Source: Methylophilus sp. (GTDB lineage Bacteria; Pseudomonadota; Gammaproteobacteria; Burkholderiales; Methylophilaceae). Taken from it: a DNA stretch of 64,000 bases. Position numbers and translations under genes: made by a program. The notes under the pieces were generated by a model. That model saw only the letters and a program-made list of their open reading frames with translations. It made no database searches and had not been told where the DNA came from. Of this stretch, positions 699-33,449 are shown one piece after another. Where the stretch lies: the NCBI RefSeq assembly GCF_035460085.1, contig NZ_DATHWZ010000090.1:15006-79005 (forward strand), in the 5' to 3' direction. Every line of letters starts with the position of its first letter. Position 1 is the first letter of the stretch.

Positions 699-1049
699 AT
701 GAAGATCGCCAAATATATTTTAGGGATTGCGTTAAGCAGCATTGCCGCATTATCCGCCCACGCTGATAACAACTGGTCGGTAGGTGTTGTGGTAGGCAAT
801 CCATATGCGCCACCACCCGTTTACTATGCACCGCCACCGGTGTATTACGCCCCACCGCCAGTGGTGATTTACCGTCACCCGCACAGCAGTTATTACGGTG
901 CGCCAGCGGTAGGATATGCGCCACCAGCGCCCGGTTTTATCCAGTTTGGTTATAACAACGGTGGCTACCGTGGTTTTGACAGAGGCCCGAGAGGCCCGCG
1001 TGGTGGCTGGGGACGTGGTCACGATCATGATCACCGCCATCACCACTAA
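699..1049 (+). CDS. Secreted Pro/Tyr/Gly-rich low-complexity protein (PXPV-repeat-like) with His-rich C-terminus
   Basis: GAGAGGAG RBS before ATG 699; signal peptide ending AHA; three YAPPPV(Y) repeats; ends GHDHDHRHHH. Confidence 0.8.
   Translation: MKIAKYILGIALSSIAALSAHADNNWSVGVVVGNPYAPPPVYYAPPPVYYAPPPVVIYRHPHSSYYGAPAVGYAPPAPGFIQFGYNNGGYRGFDRGPRGPRGGWGRGHDHDHRHHH
804..866 (+). repeat. Three in-frame 21-nt tandem repeats encoding YAPPPV(Y/V)
   Basis: tatgcgccaccacccgtttac / tatgcaccgccaccggtgtat / tacgccccaccgccagtggtg; the units differ mostly at synonymous positions. Confidence 0.9.
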
Positions 1050-1555
1050 GCAGTATGTTTGATCAGGTTCAGCAAGCCTGCCAGCGCATGACTGGCAGCT
1101 TGCTGGCGGATTTCAGTCCTGCTCCCTTCGTAATAGCAAGTTTCTACCAGCATTTTTTTCGCTTGCTGACCTTTTTGGGTGTTAGCTGCCCAACTGAAAC
1201 ACACCATTCCTATCGGCTTTTCTACAGAACCGCCTCCAGGCCCGGCAATGCCTGTGATTGACGCACTGATTTGGGCACGGCTATGCTGTAACGCGCCAAT
1301 CGCCATCGCTTCTGCGACCGCTTCACTGACAGCACCATGGATCTCAATCAATGATCTAGGCACACCCAGCATATCGGTTTTGGCTTCATTGCTGTAAGTC
1401 ACAAAGCCGCGATCAAACCAGGCTGAACTGCCAGCAATCGCAGTCACTACCTGCGCAACCATACCACCGGTACATGATTCAGCGAGAGCCAACTGCCAGC
1501 CTTGGGCTTGTAGGGCCAGCCCAACGTCCTGGCTTAACGCTTCAATATCTTCCAT
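1046..1555 (-). CDS. pncC: CinA C-terminal family nicotinamide-nucleotide amidohydrolase
   Basis: LALAESCTGG, GSSAWFDRGFVTYSNEAK, GAVSEAVAEAMA, SITGIAGPGGG motifs; ATG 1555 overlaps the pgpA stop codon (TGATG). Confidence 0.93.
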   Translation of the reverse strand: MEDIEALSQDVGLALQAQGWQLALAESCTGGMVAQVVTAIAGSSAWFDRGFVTYSNEAKTDMLGVPRSLIEIHGAVSEAVAEAMAIGALQHSRAQISASITGIAGPGGGSVEKPIGMVCFSWAANTQKGQQAKKMLVETCYYEGSRTEIRQQAASHALAGLLNLIKHTA

Positions 1556-2061
1556 CACAGCCACCATTGAAACAGTTGCAATACCAGGATCGCCATGACT
1601 GCCGCCATTGCATCATCCAGCATGACGCCCAGCCCCCCTTTGATGTGCCTGTCTGCCCAGCTGATGGGAAACGGTTTCCAGATATCGAATAGGCGGAATA
1701 ATATAAACGCTGACAACCCCCAGCCCCAGGTGAATGGCACGGTGATCAATATCGCCGCCATCGCGACTATTTCGTCCCAGACGATGGCGCCATGATCGCT
1801 CACACCTAATGCACGGCCGGTGAATGCACTGCACCAGACGCCAAATAAGAATAGCAACGATACAGCCAGCCACTGTTGCCAATGCGGCAAGGACATAAGG
1901 GCCCAGAATAATGGGAAGCCCAATACAGTTCCTGCCGTCCCGGGTGCTTTAGGGAACAGTCCCGTGCCCAGCCCAAAGCTAAGGAAATGCAAGGGATGCG
2001 AGAAAAGCAGCGCCAGGTCTGGTTCGGTGATCCGCTGACGGTTATTAGCCAAAGTGCTCAT
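1555..2061 (-). CDS. pgpA: Phosphatidylglycerophosphatase A
   Basis: PKAPGTAGT, DHGAIVWDEIV, FRLFDIWKPFPI, GGLGVMLDD motifs; follows thiL as is usual. Confidence 0.95.
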   Translation of the reverse strand: MSTLANNRQRITEPDLALLFSHPLHFLSFGLGTGLFPKAPGTAGTVLGFPLFWALMSLPHWQQWLAVSLLFLFGVWCSAFTGRALGVSDHGAIVWDEIVAMAAILITVPFTWGWGLSAFILFRLFDIWKPFPISWADRHIKGGLGVMLDDAMAAVMAILVLQLFQWWL

Positions 2062-3004
2062 AGCCTTTCTTTGATAATTCAATCTGAGTTTCGCGATCTT
2101 GTACAGTCAGTCCTGGAGCTTCAGTGATACACCCTATGCGCGTTAAAGGCACATCCAGCGCTTCTGAGAATGCGATGACTTCATCACGTCGTTGCGGAGA
2201 TACGGTAAAACATAATTCATATTCATCACCTCCACCGAGCACCGCCTGCTCTAGAACAGACTGGGAGACCTCTGTAAGCAATTGAGGTTTAGGTAATAAC
2301 GCCCAATCAAGCCGGGCACCTTTACTGGAAGCTTTAAGAATATGATTCAAATCGGCCAGCAAGCCATCTGAGATATCGAGTGCAGCATGCGCGATTTCCC
2401 GCAACGCCAGCCCCAAGGCCACACGAGGTTGCGGTTGATGCATGGCAGATGCGAAATCAGCGACATCATCAGCATGCAAATCCAGCTTACCCAGCTTGTT
2501 TTGCAGCCATAAAGCGGCTTTCCCGAGCGTCCCGCTGACCCAGATATCATCGCCCGCCTGCGCTCCACCCCGCTTGATCGCTTTATGTAGTGGCACCTCA
2601 CCAAAAATATTAATGGCAATATTTAATGGCCCACGCGTGGTATCTCCACCAATCACCGAAACGCCATAGGCATCGGCGCAGGCGAACAAACCCTGGCTAA
2701 AGCCTTGCAGCCAGTCTTCTTTAATTTCTGGTAAAGCAATCGATAATGTTGCCCATTTAGGGTTTGCGCCCATCGCAGCCATATCACTGACGTTCACTGC
2801 CATGGCTTTCCATCCGATCGAGTAAGGATCAGCCTCTGCAAAAAAATGCGTCCCGGATACCGACATATCGGCAGAGATGGCCAGTTGATAGCCTGGTGTT
2901 ACAGTGATTAGCGCTGCATCATCCCCTATACCCAGATCGGCTGTATTGAAACCAGCTTTACCAGGCCTGGTAAAATATTGAGCGATAAGATCAAACTCTG
3001 CCAT
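2045..3004 (-). CDS. thiL: Thiamine-monophosphate kinase
   Basis: MAEFDLI start, GIGDDAA, NVSDMAAMG, GGDTTRGP, LDISDGL, GGDEYELCFT motifs. Confidence 0.96.
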   Translation of the reverse strand: MAEFDLIAQYFTRPGKAGFNTADLGIGDDAALITVTPGYQLAISADMSVSGTHFFAEADPYSIGWKAMAVNVSDMAAMGANPKWATLSIALPEIKEDWLQGFSQGLFACADAYGVSVIGGDTTRGPLNIAINIFGEVPLHKAIKRGGAQAGDDIWVSGTLGKAALWLQNKLGKLDLHADDVADFASAMHQPQPRVALGLALREIAHAALDISDGLLADLNHILKASSKGARLDWALLPKPQLLTEVSQSVLEQAVLGGGDEYELCFTVSPQRRDEVIAFSEALDVPLTRIGCITEAPGLTVQDRETQIELSKKGYEHFG

Positions 3005-3356
3005 GCCGCTTTTTCCACCAGCTTTCCAGTAAAATAAACACAAACCAGGCTAAAGCTATTCCCACCAGATCGGCAAACCAATCATAGACGCTGGGTTGGC
3101 GCGTCGTCGTCAGGACACCTTGCAACACTTCCATCAAGCCTCCAAACACCGTCAATCCAAGCAGCATAGCGCGTTTATGCATAGGGAAAGCCATCAATCC
3201 CCAAAACATCACGCCGCCAAAAGCAATGATATGTTCTATTTTATCTTTGTATATTGAGCCATCGTTAGACGGCGGCATTTCTATGAGTAATAAATAGGTC
3301 AGGATGGTGAAACAAGCTATGAAAATCAGGGTGGGAATCTTTTTGTAATTCATCAT
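2991..3356 (-). CDS. VanZ family membrane protein
   Basis: DKIEHIIAF, MEVLQ...R.PSVYDWFADLVG match the VanZ pattern; four hydrophobic segments. Confidence 0.85.
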   Translation of the reverse strand: MMNYKKIPTLIFIACFTILTYLLLIEMPPSNDGSIYKDKIEHIIAFGGVMFWGLMAFPMHKRAMLLGLTVFGGLMEVLQGVLTTTRQPSVYDWFADLVGIALAWFVFILLESWWKKRHGRV

Positions 3357-3964: not shown

Positions 3965-4082
3965 AACTTGAGGTCTATGTTAAGTTGGTCGGTATTAATA
4001 TGGTGTGTTAATGTACCAGCACATCATAACATCACCCGGCACATCAGTAAGCTTAAAGGTGTCATGCATCATGGAGAATCAG

Positions 4083-4883
4083 ATGAAAGTTTTATACAAA
4101 GTAGCGCATTTCACAGGTAGATTCACCTCGCCCAGCCAGTGGTTGTTCATATTGCCTGCGCTAGTCATCATTACCTTATTCACTTTCTCGAAAACAGTAT
4201 CGGCAGATGACAACCCATACGCCAGCAATTACCAGGCGCAGAATCAGGGTAATCTGCATTCACTGCAAAGCAAACCCGAACCACAATTACTCAGCGGCAC
4301 CCGTCGTGATGATGACAATATCAACATGCTGGAAAACGGTTATGACCTGATGGGCCTGAGCGCATTTGAAGCGGGAGACATCTCACCCGAACAGGCGATT
4401 AGCCATGGCCGTAGCATCCAGGCAGATATGATCCTGGTATATGTTAAAAAATCCGGTAACGCTACACCAGCCTCAAAAATGGAAGTCATTAAAGAAGCCG
4501 TCAAAAAAGGCCAAGCGCTCACCGAAAAAGATATGGCTATCGACCCGGGCAAATATCGCTACTACGCTACATACTGGGCAAAATTGCCACCACCGGTACT
4601 AGGGGTGCATGTGGTTAAGCTGGTCGCCCGCAAATCCTCACAAGAAGATGAACAACCACAAGTGACCGATGCCAGTGAAGGCGTCAGGGTAATTGCCGTG
4701 ATACATGGTTCTGCCGCCGAGCAGGCCGGGGTATTACGCGGCGACCAGTTACTGAGCATCAACCAGGAAAAAGTGAACGATGCTGCGGCTTTATCGAGCC
4801 TGGTCAGGCGCTTCAAGGGCAATACGGTCACTATCAATATCCAAAGACAATCTGAACCGCTTTCGTTAAAGGTCACCCTGTAA
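4083..4883 (+). CDS. Exported/membrane-anchored PDZ-domain protein
   Basis: GGAG RBS before ATG 4083; N-terminal hydrophobic segment; C-terminal PDZ (GVRVIAVIHGSAAEQAGVLRGDQLLSIN); no protease domain recognised. Confidence 0.85.
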   Translation: MKVLYKVAHFTGRFTSPSQWLFILPALVIITLFTFSKTVSADDNPYASNYQAQNQGNLHSLQSKPEPQLLSGTRRDDDNINMLENGYDLMGLSAFEAGDISPEQAISHGRSIQADMILVYVKKSGNATPASKMEVIKEAVKKGQALTEKDMAIDPGKYRYYATYWAKLPPPVLGVHVVKLVARKSSQEDEQPQVTDASEGVRVIAVIHGSAAEQAGVLRGDQLLSINQEKVNDAAALSSLVRRFKGNTVTINIQRQSEPLSLKVTL

Positions 4884-4931
4884 CAGCAAGCCGCTCTGAA
4901 TTATCGACCTCATTAATAGAAAGTGTTTCAC

Positions 4932-6932
4932 ATGTTTCAAGTTACGTTCGAGCATCAGGCAGCCCGCATAGCGTCTGGTCATATCGACGATATCCAGTTT
5001 TTACGTGCGCTGCTTGATGATATCCGTCCTCGTCAATCAACCGATACTGAGAGTGCCAGCAAGTCAATTCAGGCGCTTTGTTTCCTGCTACAGCAGCAAC
5101 CTTCATTTGCGCTGGAATTGCGAAACAGTATCCTGCGTCTCTTGAATGAAAAAAGTGTGATTTCACTGTATTCCGAGCATGGCATTCAGTCTGATTTAGG
5201 ATTTTTTACTGAAACCTACCGGCGCTTTTCCCACAAATTACTGCCCGAAGTCCCTGATCCCAGATACCTGAAAGATGTATTTGGTCAGGTTTTTCACCAC
5301 ACTAATGATGCTAACTGGGTAACCGGCGTGCCGAACACTGTATGGTGTGATTTCATACATACTCTGGCATTGAGCGAGGGTAATGATTTGCAGCAGGAAA
5401 GCTGCATTCAAGAATTGAAGGATGCACTACAGGTGCTCTCTTTCCGCCTATCCGCTTCAGGACTCGACCCGGAGCTTATTTTGCAGCATGAAGACCTGGA
5501 AAATAATGCCTCGCCATTCATTACACAGAATATTGAAATCCAGAAATTCCTGGCACTCTCGGTCACTACTGCAGACGATATACAACATATTTATGATGTA
5601 TTGAAACGTTGCCAGAAACTCAATGATGAAATCCGTAAGGCGAACGCCAAGACAGGGACCAGCATTTCGCTAACCGCCCTGATGCAAAGAATGCAGCAGC
5701 AGATTCATCGTATGCAATTATTGGTGGATATTCTGCATGGTCTGTTACTCAAGCATGATGTGAATGATGCGATTACGCGCTTGTTCAAGCAACTGGTTTA
5801 TGCCGAGTGTAAAAAGAACAACCTTTCAGAATATTGGCGCCATAACACTGAGTTACTGGCTTTGCGGGTGACTGAAAATGCCAGTCACACCGGCGAGCAT
5901 TACATCGCCCAGCATAGGCAGGAGTATTTGAAGCTGATGGGGTCTGCCATGGGCGCCGGGGTGATTATTGCATTTATGGCTATGTTTAAAATCATCATCG
6001 CCAGCTACCACTTCGCGCCTCTGGCTGAAGCCATTTTCTTTAGCCTGAATTATGGGTTGGGGTTTGTTCTGATTCATTTACTGCATTTCACAGTCGCCAC
6101 CAAACAGCCGGCGATGACCGCAGCGACAATAGCGGCCGCCATTGATGATGATGGGCACGATAGCAAAAACATTCACAGCCTGGTCAAGATTGTCGCGCAG
6201 ACCACCAGCAGCCAGACAATCGCCATTCTGGGTAATGTCATTGTCGTGATTCCGATGGCGATGTTTATTGACTGGCTGGTAGTGCAGTATAGCGGCCACC
6301 ACTTTATCGGCGAGGCTAAAGCCAATATCCTGCTTGACTCAAACAACCCGTTGATCAGCCTTAGTGCCCTATATGCTGCGGTGGCGGGGGTTTGCTTGTT
6401 CCTTTCCGGCTTAATTGCTGGTTATCATGACAACCTGGCAGCTTATAACCGCATTCCCGAACGTATCGCCCACCTGCCCCTTTTACAACGCTTCTTGGGT
6501 AAAGAGCGCCTGCTACGTATTTCAGAATACATCCGCCATAATCTGGGCGCGCTGGCCGGTAACTTCTATTTTGGCTGCTTGCTTGGGTTTGCATCCGGGC
6601 TGGGCGTGATGCTTGGTTTACCATTGGATATCCGCCATGTCACCTTTGTAGCAGCATTCTCCGGCTATGCATTCTCTGCACTGGATTTCCAGGTGAGCTA
6701 TTACATACTTGGAACGGCCTTACTCGGCATTTTTGTGGTGGCGACCATCAACTTGCTGACCAGCTTCGGTTTAGCTATTTTTGTTGCTATGAAATCAAGG
6801 CAAGTGCGCTACCGTCACTGGAAAGCTTTTGCGCTGGAATTACTGACTTTGCTCTATCGTCAACCGTGGAAATTCGTACTTCCACCTAAAAAAACTGAAA
6901 TTGAGTCAAGACTTGAAAGAACTAAGCACTAA
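4932..6932 (+). CDS. Gcr-family 'site-specific recombinase' (PF10136-type) polytopic membrane protein; C-terminal half resembles an FNT channel
   Basis: Family motifs ASHTGEHYI, LNYGLGF, VATKQPAMTA, GNFYFG.LLG, LPLDIRHVTF. N-terminal soluble helical region plus about six hydrophobic helices. An in-frame GTG at 4923 is an alternative start. Confidence 0.85.
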   Translation: MFQVTFEHQAARIASGHIDDIQFLRALLDDIRPRQSTDTESASKSIQALCFLLQQQPSFALELRNSILRLLNEKSVISLYSEHGIQSDLGFFTETYRRFSHKLLPEVPDPRYLKDVFGQVFHHTNDANWVTGVPNTVWCDFIHTLALSEGNDLQQESCIQELKDALQVLSFRLSASGLDPELILQHEDLENNASPFITQNIEIQKFLALSVTTADDIQHIYDVLKRCQKLNDEIRKANAKTGTSISLTALMQRMQQQIHRMQLLVDILHGLLLKHDVNDAITRLFKQLVYAECKKNNLSEYWRHNTELLALRVTENASHTGEHYIAQHRQEYLKLMGSAMGAGVIIAFMAMFKIIIASYHFAPLAEAIFFSLNYGLGFVLIHLLHFTVATKQPAMTAATIAAAIDDDGHDSKNIHSLVKIVAQTTSSQTIAILGNVIVVIPMAMFIDWLVVQYSGHHFIGEAKANILLDSNNPLISLSALYAAVAGVCLFLSGLIAGYHDNLAAYNRIPERIAHLPLLQRFLGKERLLRISEYIRHNLGALAGNFYFGCLLGFASGLGVMLGLPLDIRHVTFVAAFSGYAFSALDFQVSYYILGTALLGIFVVATINLLTSFGLAIFVAMKSRQVRYRHWKAFALELLTLLYRQPWKFVLPPKKTEIESRLERTKH

Positions 6933-7018: not shown

Positions 7019-7255
7019 TCAAGAAGTTTTTTCTATCAAAAAGTGAAATACCCCGTCTTCCTTTTTAAAAGACAGTAAGTTGACCGGATGATTGGTAATC
7101 AAGGTACGGATATTTTGCTCGCTGCCAAGTGCGGTCGTTTTCACCAGGATAATCTGGCCCGGTGACAGCTTATCTATGGCTTCTTTGGTTTTCAACATCG
7201 GCTCAGGACTCTGCAATCCTGTTAAATCCAGTTCTAAATCAATATTTTGCATCAC
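7019..7255 (-). CDS. TusA/SirA-family protein lacking the catalytic cysteine
   Basis: LDLTGLQSPEPMLKTKEAIDKLSPGQII.V follows the TusA pattern (LD..GL.CP.P...K..L..L..G..L.V), but reads SPEP instead of CPEP; the protein has no Cys. Confidence 0.8.
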   Translation of the reverse strand: MMQNIDLELDLTGLQSPEPMLKTKEAIDKLSPGQIILVKTTALGSEQNIRTLITNHPVNLLSFKKEDGVFHFLIEKTS

Positions 7256-32154: not shown

Positions 32155-33449
32155 TGCGACTGAACAAACACCTCACTTCCGCCCATGACCTGTCATCCCG
32201 CAGACAATTCGTACGCTCAGTCATCTATGGCGGCCTCGCTTTTTATGGCATGCCGGCTTTTGCACGTGCCAGTAAACCGCCACTGGGACATGTCGTTATC
32301 GTAGGCGCCGGATTTGCCGGGCTGACAGCCGCCAAATATTTGCGCGAATGGAGTATGGGCAATATCAAGGTCAGTATTGTTGAGCCGAATCCACAATTTA
32401 TTTCCTGCCCGCAAAGTAACCTGGTGTTAGGTGGCAGCCGCACGCTGGATGAATTAAGTTTTTCCTATGATTTGGCACGCAAGCGGCATGGCCTGCAATG
32501 GATTAAAGATACGGTCACTGCGGTAGATATCGCAAACAAACAGGTCACCTTGTCACGCGGAAATTTACGTTATGACCGCCTGGTGCTGGCGCCAGGTGTA
32601 GATTTTGATTACAGCCGAATCCCTGGAATGTCTTCACCGGTTGATGATGTTCCACATGCCTGGAAAGCGGGCAGGCAAACCTTGCAATTACACCAGCAAC
32701 TTGAAAGCATGCCGGATGGCGGCGTGTTTGTGATGACGATTCCGGCGGCCCCCTACCGTTGCCCCCCCGGGCCTTATGAACGCGCTTGCCAGGTCGCACA
32801 TTATTTAAAACAAAACAAGCCACGTAGTAAAGTGATTATCCTGGATGCCAATGCTGATATCACCTCTAAAAAAGGCTTGTTTCTGCAGAGCTTTCAAGGC
32901 GCCTATCAGGGCATCATTGAATACCATAACAACAGTAGCATCCTGCAATTAGATACCGCCAGTAAAACTATCAAGACAGACTTTGAGACAGTCAAAGCGG
33001 ATGTCTTAAATGTTATTCCGCCGCAATTAGCAGGCAAAGTGGCTCAAACTGCGGGGTTGGCAAATGTGGATCAGCGCTGGTGTGAAGTAGACTTTACGAC
33101 CTATGCTTCAAACGTAAACCCGGATATACATATCATTGGTGACAGTATTTCGGCAGGTTTGCCGAAATCTGCCCATATGGCCACTTCGCAAGCCAAAATC
33201 TGCGCCGCCGCTATAGTCGATATTCAGTCCGGTATCCCGCCGAATCCGCTGCCGGTATTTGCCAACACCTGCTACAGTTTTGTCGACGATAAACAGGCTA
33301 TGCATGTGGCCAATGTCTACCGTTATGATCCCGCCAAAAAATCCATGGTATCCGCCGAAGGCGGTGGCGTATCCACCAAGGCCTCAGTACAGGAGGGTGA
33401 CTATGCACAAGCCTGGGCGCAGAACATCTGGGCAGACACGTTGACATAA
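32154..33449 (+). CDS. fccB: Flavocytochrome c sulfide dehydrogenase flavoprotein subunit
   Basis: Tat motif SRRQF; GAGFAG FAD-binding; SCPQSN (flavin-attachment Cys); YRCPPGPYERA and NTCYSFV (redox disulfide cysteines); PKSAH motif. Confidence 0.92.
   Translation: MRLNKHLTSAHDLSSRRQFVRSVIYGGLAFYGMPAFARASKPPLGHVVIVGAGFAGLTAAKYLREWSMGNIKVSIVEPNPQFISCPQSNLVLGGSRTLDELSFSYDLARKRHGLQWIKDTVTAVDIANKQVTLSRGNLRYDRLVLAPGVDFDYSRIPGMSSPVDDVPHAWKAGRQTLQLHQQLESMPDGGVFVMTIPAAPYRCPPGPYERACQVAHYLKQNKPRSKVIILDANADITSKKGLFLQSFQGAYQGIIEYHNNSSILQLDTASKTIKTDFETVKADVLNVIPPQLAGKVAQTAGLANVDQRWCEVDFTTYASNVNPDIHIIGDSISAGLPKSAHMATSQAKICAAAIVDIQSGIPPNPLPVFANTCYSFVDDKQAMHVANVYRYDPAKKSMVSAEGGGVSTKASVQEGDYAQAWAQNIWADTLT

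Follow-up and report, generated by a model that had tools for sequence, protein, structure and literature searches.

A predicted FNT-type channel domain in the 'site-specific recombinase' family PF10136 of Methylophilus

Can a protein that carries the name of a DNA recombinase be a membrane channel instead? The question is raised by a gene in a 64,000-nt stretch of a Methylophilus sp. genome (contig NZ_DATHWZ010000090.1, positions 15,006 to 79,005), which is referred to here as the window. The gene occupies window positions 4932-6932 on the forward strand (+) and, according to the list of open reading frames (ORFs) and the translation, encodes a 666-aa product from the ATG, or 669 aa from an alternative GTG start at 4923; a GAAAG motif lies 9-10 nt 5' of the ATG at 4932. 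The coding sequence is assigned to the Pfam family PF10136 ('SpecificRecomb', or Gcr-type) by a full-length match (E 3.4e-223, 743 bits) in which residues 20-651 cover positions 3-639 of the 639 in the profile. The initial annotation, made from the DNA letters and their translations, had proposed that this 'recombinase' is mis-annotated and related to the FNT channels (PF01226), which include FocA (formate), NirC (nitrite), HSC/FNT3 (hydrosulfide) and PfFNT (lactate). This main idea is supported by our analysis, and no computational refutation test that was run went against it. We consider it probable that PF10136 proteins are divergent FNT-type pores, that is, small-anion channels gated by their N-terminal domain, and not DNA recombinases.

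The relationship to FNT channels is seen when profiles are compared. Two alignments were used: A1, with 128 diverse PF10136 members at 30-56% identity to the query, and A2, with 31 FNT sequences (FocA and 30 PF01226 genes from sampled Pseudomonadota genomes). In hhalign, A1 matched A2 with Prob 94.5% (E 8e-8, 127 columns), pairing query residues 308-453 with FocA 10-139, and the sub-alignment of residues 300-460 reached Prob 95.4% (E 1.9e-8). The real profile scored 59-65, while the controls (a reversed FNT profile and 20 column-shuffled ones) scored 11-19, with Prob <1%. A hidden Markov model (HMM) of A2, searched with all filters off (--max), matched 127 of the 128 members colinearly, with a median score of 14.5 bits and a highest score of 25.4; the matches set FNT positions from ≤25 on against protein positions from 290-380 on. 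For reversed sequences, the median was -1.7 and the highest score 4.2 bits. Within the aligned part, residues that are invariant in FNTs coincide with identical residues that are invariant in the PF10136 family (G23/G321, G42/G343, G78/G377, T91/T390 and G120-N121/G434-N435, FocA numbering first), and the pore-lining F75, L79 and L89 of FNTs are matched by Y374, F378 and V/L/I388. These comparisons demonstrate a remote homology between the first three transmembrane (TM) helices, TM1-TM3, of PF10136 and the FNT family.

Six peptides of the protein had originally been aligned by eye with strings of FocA. All of these strings are present in the translated E. coli K-12 FocA, and the peptides are located at residues 317-327 (ASHTGEHYIAQ), 338-348 (SAMGAGVIIAF), 372-390 (LNYGLGFVLIHLLHFTVAT), 430-438 (IAILGNVIV), 479-491 (ALYAAVAGVCLFL) and 565-572 (LDIRHVTF). 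The first four pairs are reproduced by the profile-profile alignment, in which ASHTGEHYIAQ meets AEEAGVYKATK, SAMGAGVIIAF meets LAITAGVFISI, LNYGLGFVLIHLLHFTVAT meets ICFSLGLILCVVCGADLFT (with T390 on T91) and ILGNVIV meets YFGNLVG. The last two pairs (in TM4, and LDIRH with GFEHS), by contrast, are recovered by no sequence method, and are consistent with the structural match.

Structure prediction covers the whole membrane half. AlphaFold2, used without templates on A1, gave a full-length model with a predicted local distance difference test score (pLDDT) of 94.5 and a predicted TM-score (pTM) of 0.90, and a second model, of the TM domain alone, was obtained from A3, an alignment of 11 sequences from other genomes (pLDDT 82.9, pTM 0.81). 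Both models contain, in this order, a pre-membrane helix, TM1, a broken TM2, TM3, TM4, a basic insertion of ~30 residues, a broken TM5 and TM6. DSSP resolves the breaks as H363-383 / loop 384-391 / H392-404 and H516-560 / loop 561-569 / H570-583, and T390 and H569 stand at the ends of these two helix breaks. When the full model was compared with the PDB by Foldseek, FNT channels were the sole matches at a probability of 1.00, among them HSC (3tdo_A, TM-score by target 0.67, 326 columns), PfFNT (0.57) and FocA (9g49, 0.54). Over both models, FocA 9g49 gave 0.54-0.56 and NirC (4fc4) 0.58, also at a probability of 1.00. For the TM-only model, the top 12 matches were all FNTs (E 2e-3 to 1e-2, TM-score 0.56-0.66 by target and 0.44-0.49 by query, 318-352 columns), with NirC lower in the list, and the non-FNT matches had TM-scores ≤0.22 throughout. 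Solved FNT channels are thus the only structures on which the template-free models superpose, as had been anticipated. It is important to note that TM1-TM3 by themselves cannot yield a target-normalised TM-score of 0.67, which means that the second half has to superpose as well. That the membrane domain of PF10136 has an FNT-type fold and shares ancestry with FNTs is a conclusion we hold with high confidence.

The two residues that matter most in FNT channels are placed on the two breaks. In FocA, T91 marks the tip of the omega-loop, which links TM2a to TM2b, and H209 ends the S-loop that joins TM5a to TM5b; FNTs use these Thr and His residues for translocation (PMC9380403). The counterparts named in the initial annotation were T390 (codon at 6099-6101) and H569 (codon at 6636-6638), and both codons are where they were said to be. 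T390 aligns with FocA T91 in hhalign; H569 is invariant and ends the TM5 break in the models, but no alignment brings it to H209. In A1, T occupies position 390 in 127/128 sequences, with S in the remaining one, and H occupies position 569 in 128/128, so that the family-wide conservation expected of this Thr and His was found. K391 (127/128) and P393 (128/128) are equally constrained. Near-invariant motifs, A-T-K-Q-P-A-M-T-A and P-L-D-I-R-H, surround the pair, and the mean frequency of the top residue is 0.54 in the TM domain vs 0.39 in the N-terminal domain. From the position of H569 in the models and its invariance, rather than from a residue-level alignment, we infer that it would be the equivalent of FocA H209.

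The architecture can be followed along the gene, all features being on the + strand. Residues 1-300 (4932..5831) form an N-terminal all-alpha domain, presumably cytoplasmic, in which DSSP of the AlphaFold2 model gives helices only and pLDDT is mostly >93; the N-terminal domain of about 310 aa that had been postulated is confirmed as all-helical, and no substantial match to it came from Pfam, PDB sequences or Foldseek. All hydrophobic segments are located after residue ~330. A pre-membrane helix (residues 298-324, 5823..5903, from DSSP) aligns with the N-terminal helix of FocA (residues ~10-26), hhalign pairing residues 308-328 with FocA 10-30, including G321 with G23. TM1 (residues 329-358, 5916..6005; hydropathy, alignment and DSSP) contains the invariant G343, opposite FocA G42, and an invariant K353. 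TM2a (residues 363-383, 6018..6080; alignment and DSSP) contains the invariant Y374, G377 and F378, opposite F75, G78 and L79. The TM2 break (residues 384-391, 6081..6104), set by DSSP and by the hhalign pairing of T390 with FocA T91, is the equivalent of the omega-loop of FNTs and includes part of the signature ATKQPAMT; it is followed by the half-helix TM2b (residues 392-404, 6105..6143; DSSP H392-404, and H93-107 in the TM-only model). TM3 (residues 410-454, 6159..6293; alignment and DSSP) carries G434-N435, the counterpart of the FNT-invariant G120-N121.

In the second half of the membrane domain, TM4 (residues 478-505, 6363..6446) is placed by DSSP, with a hydropathy peak at 477-495, and is followed by a basic cytoplasmic TM4-TM5 insertion with an invariant R511 (residues 506-535, 6447..6536; DSSP and alignment). 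TM5a (6537..6611; hydropathy and DSSP) is the membrane part of helix 516-560. The TM5 break (residues 561-569, 6612..6638; DSSP of both models), which would correspond to the S-loop of FNTs, has the invariant H569 as its last residue and includes the nearly invariant D566 and R568, and the half-helix TM5b (residues 570-583, 6639..6680) follows in the DSSP of both models. TM6 (residues 590-622, 6699..6797; hydropathy, alignment and DSSP) contains the invariant N607, S611 and F612, and the protein ends in cytoplasmic helices with the conserved P645 and P651 (residues 627-665, 6810..6926; alignment and DSSP). Two candidate features were tried here and led no further: a weak match of the 'GN' motif at 536-548 to FocA TM6 conflicts with the topology and was rejected, and an internal repeat between the first and second TM halves was not significant.

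Since the membrane half is FNT-related and the pore Thr and His are conserved, the protein is most likely a regulated small-anion channel rather than a DNA enzyme. In the mechanism we propose, it would sit in the inner membrane, and its ~320 C-terminal residues (about 308-625) would make up a divergent FNT-type, aquaporin-like pore domain of six TM helices, the 2nd and 5th of them broken mid-membrane; T390 and H569, carried by the breaks in the manner of FocA T91 and H209, would form the central site of the pore. Each protomer would have a pore for a small monovalent anion or the corresponding conjugate acid, and a pentamer is suggested by analogy. That the domain conducts a small anion or weak acid is likewise argued from analogy with FNTs, and we lean modestly towards it. 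In FocA, the N-terminal helix gates the channel through PflB (PMC9380403). The ~300-aa all-helical domain of PF10136 is fused directly to the equivalent of this helix, so it probably controls access at the cytoplasmic mouth.

The points that weigh against an FNT-type channel must be set beside this proposal. On the side of sequence, the PF01226 HMM (gathering score 34.6 bits) had no match at E ≤10 to the protein, its TM domain or 10 relatives, BLASTP against FocA gave only non-colinear scraps, and phmmer and hmmsearch against PDB sequences gave no match. The second TM half (455-666) showed no signal against FNTs in hhalign, whether in local, global or low-mact mode or by sub-regions, and for this reason the equivalence of H569 and H209 is only positional. 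The Foldseek E-values are also modest (2e-3 at best, and up to 0.5). The profile similarity to FNTs that had been expected is thus significant for TM1-TM3, but it does not extend to the PF01226 HMM itself. All of these results favour the view that the FNT resemblance is spurious, a generic helical-bundle or compositional likeness in an unrelated membrane protein, amplified by the training of AlphaFold2 on FNTs. We judge this highly unlikely, as the real profile stands well apart from reversed and shuffled controls that stay at noise, the FNT HMM aligns colinearly in nearly every member, and six FNT-invariant positions coincide with identical family-invariant residues. Furthermore, the same broken-helix topology is obtained in two models from different alignments, and FNTs are the only structures to exceed a TM-score of 0.5.

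The chemistry of the pore also differs from what is known of FNTs. In the alignment, the FNT residues K26 and D88 are replaced by Y324 and T387, and E208 would be replaced by R568 if H569 is H209; in addition, the pore loops hold extra invariant charges (K391, D566 and R568). With polar FNT residues lost and charges gained, the pore may have a different chemistry and perhaps a different function. The conserved polar pore residues of FocA are K156, N172, E208, N213 and N262 (PMC9380403), and candidates for such residues in the unaligned second half are K463 (68%), N607 (100%) and N501 (99%), besides R568 in the place of E208. Genomic context points to no substrate, formate, nitrite and sulfide included. 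A real but non-conducting FNT-type domain, acting as an anchor or as a ligand-sensing 'transceptor' for an active N-terminal domain, would be in keeping with the large size of that domain (300 aa) and its confident packing on the TM domain, with charged loop residues that are atypical of FNT pores, and with a neighbourhood in which no gene context related to transport was found. We regard this as unlikely, however, because the TM domain is the more conserved of the two, the most strictly conserved residues, among them the Thr and His of FNT translocation (PMC9380403), belong to the two loops that form the pore, and the N-terminal domain has no recognisable enzymatic or signalling fold. Within the preferred reading of a conducting channel, a substrate or a coupling unlike that of classical FNTs is suggested by the K391, D566 and R568 charges, by the replacements of K26 by Y324 and E208 by R568, and by the TM4-TM5 insertion together with the C-terminal helices.

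What, then, of the recombinase label? A gonococcal gcr clone reportedly allowed the inversion of a Moraxella pilin segment in E. coli, in the work from which the label comes, and this counts against a channel. According to the reference list of PMC11208160, that source is Rozsa, Meyer & Fussenegger 1997 (PMID 9079926). A homologue is present in N. gonorrhoeae, and Gcr is upregulated in a meningococcal recG mutant (PMC5063381). These are the grounds for taking the name of PF10136 literally, as that of a new, membrane-bound type of site-specific recombinase or invertase acting on DNA. Other evidence is opposed to it. No Ser-, Tyr- or DEDD/Piv-IS110-type recombinase domain was found by Pfam at E ≤10, NCBIfam or a PDB profile search, which bears out the earlier remark that recombinase motifs are missing; PF10136 is the sole Pfam match at that threshold, no other family being recorded, and the NCBIfam scan gave just a chance-level match to Avd (E 0.057). 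Residues 1-305 contain no Tyr column that reaches 50% in A1 and no invariant Ser, the best being S244 (84%) and S194 (80%), and R260 is the sole invariant residue in this part. The protein is polytopic with an FNT fold, and the flanks of the gene contain short inverted repeats at chance level only, no tRNA and no invertible segment.

The distribution of the gene also argues against a recombinase. It is single-copy and lies in unrelated housekeeping neighbourhoods without mobile-element context. Of the genomes sampled, all 6 from the same order carry it, as do 11/151 from Pseudomonadota. PF10136 is virtually absent from phages and true plasmids. Among phage records, 2/50,697 contain it, both of them 254-kb 'Acinetobacter phage' entries; among 'plasmid' records, 17/72,556 do. 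The listed ones are for the most part replicons of 0.4-4 Mb, and some entries are as large as complete chromosomes of A. baumannii and N. gonorrhoeae. The two phage records (CAKLQH020000002.1 and CAKLQF020000003.1, 'Acinetobacter phage MD-2021a') match with 37.2% identity, a value shared with A. baumannii records, and a bit score of 349, vs 348-349 in those records, and they may be bacterial DNA filed as phage. Taken together, we give very little credence to PF10136 as a genuine recombinase, of a novel membrane-bound type or otherwise, and the family name is most likely a historical mis-annotation.

The genes around PF10136 are housekeeping genes (cinA, pgpA, thiL, mog, a PDZ protein, darP and pmbA), and no conserved partner gene was found in 10 genomes (7-kb flanks) or in 80 further named genomes (3-kb flanks). 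Synteny is local to lineages: thiL recurs in 3 genomes, and genes specific to Oxalobacteraceae recur in ≤14/80. In the window, the cinA-pgpA-thiL cluster occupies 1046-3043 (-), and thiL adjoins the PF10136 gene in two other genomes of the same order (L046 and L050). Directly upstream, the gene at 4005-4883 (+) ends 48 nt before the PF10136 gene. Its product of 292 aa begins with a hydrophobic segment and has a PDZ domain in its C-terminal part; it was rejected as a conserved neighbour, as it is not found beside PF10136 genes elsewhere. Downstream and convergent, at 7019-7255 (-), lies a 78-aa ORF of the TusA family (PF01206, E 1e-17). The motif of E. coli TusA is GLRCPEP, and in this ORF (GLQSPEP) a Ser takes the place of the catalytic Cys. 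It too was rejected as a conserved neighbour, none being present beside PF10136 genes in 10 other genomes.

A connection with formate metabolism or with the FccAB sulfide system had also been suggested, and it is not supported. The FccB flavin-binding domain (PF09242, E 7e-25) is encoded at window positions ~33249-33443 (+), and since it is 26 kb from the PF10136 gene, the link to FccAB was rejected; no neighbour gene is conserved across the 10 and 80 genomes, and none points to formate. A six-frame PF01226 search of the Methylophilus genome gave no match, so there is no classical FNT in it. The idea that PF10136 excludes classical FNTs was rejected, as 4/11 PF10136-positive genomes also have PF01226.

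The family is large and keeps its form. An exhaustive search of 1.84 billion representatives gave 1,757 clusters at 50% identity, there are at least 4,968 PF10136 clusters at 90% identity, and the ~650-700-aa architecture is retained in all of the best 150 listed relatives. The octapeptide ATKQPAMT matched at least 599 stretches in species-representative genomes, and 597 of the matches listed encode relatives. The nearest relatives are from Methylophilus and other Methylophilaceae and are labelled either 'site-specific recombinase' or 'preprotein translocase subunit TatB'; other named relatives come from Rhodocyclaceae, Oxalobacteraceae, Neisseria, Burkholderia, Comamonas and Ralstonia, as well as from Acinetobacter/Moraxellaceae and others. 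The TatB name, borne in NCBI/UniRef by the homologues P0015, P0016, P0422 and P0438, looks like a second mis-annotation of the family, and the trace of TatB in the protein (residues 138-193 against the TatB amphipathic helix) is at chance level (E 0.78-1.6). Two further relatives, P0395 and P0408, carry a precomputed PF01226.24 match that local hmmscan with PF01226.23 does not reproduce; these matches appear to be faint and consistent with a remote relationship.

How does the protein compare with systems that are already known? With FNTs it shares six TMs of which TM2 and TM5 are broken, a Thr on the first break and a putatively equivalent His at the end of the second, the glycines of TM1-TM3 with the GN motif, and a cytoplasmic N-terminal helix before TM1; its TM-scores to solved FNTs are 0.56-0.67. 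It differs from them in its N-terminal domain (~300 aa, against ~30 residues in FocA), in the ~30-residue basic TM4-TM5 insertion and in a C-terminal extension of ~40 residues. In established FNT topology, represented by FocA, TM4 leads to TM5a within a few residues (PMC9380403). The loops are also different (ATKQPAMT and PLDIRH, against LFT(S) and GFEHS), K26, D88 and E208 of the FNT pore are replaced, and the PF01226 HMM gives no match. Aquaporins (the MIP family), the fold class with which FNTs are structurally allied, have a similar 3+3 TM hourglass, with two re-entrant or broken elements that meet mid-membrane (PMC9380403). None of them is in the top 50 Foldseek matches of either model, and PF10136 lacks NPA motifs. 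Gcr of Neisseria gonorrhoeae ('gonococcal recombinase'), which gave PF10136 its name, has the same Pfam family, length and architecture, the homologue in that species (the candidate gcr) being 33% identical over 87% of the query. Nothing in the sequence, structure or context of the Methylophilus protein supports the recombinase role given to Gcr.

The connection between PF10136 and FNTs appears to be new, as our literature search found no publication that links PF10136 or Gcr with FNTs. A more far-reaching interpretation is put forward tentatively, with chances that we place slightly short of even: PF10136 may be an unrecognised deep branch of the FNT superfamily in which a built-in ~300-aa gate or sensor replaces PflB, a polar pore centre (T-K-Q / D-x-R-H) selects another substrate, and the activity attributed to Gcr is indirect or an artefact.

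The name at issue is widespread. Thousands of database entries call the PF10136 protein a site-specific recombinase, and its filing under DNA repair in proteomics papers rests on that name (PMC5063381). If the channel interpretation is true, a false recombination gene would be removed from betaproteobacterial genomes, Neisseria included. It would also add a new architecture to a channel family that is studied for gating and proton coupling, and in which the short N-terminus of FocA is already known as a gate. Lastly, PF10136 would become a candidate for a still unassigned flux of small anions in methylotrophs, denitrifying Rhodocyclaceae, Burkholderia, Acinetobacter and Neisseria.

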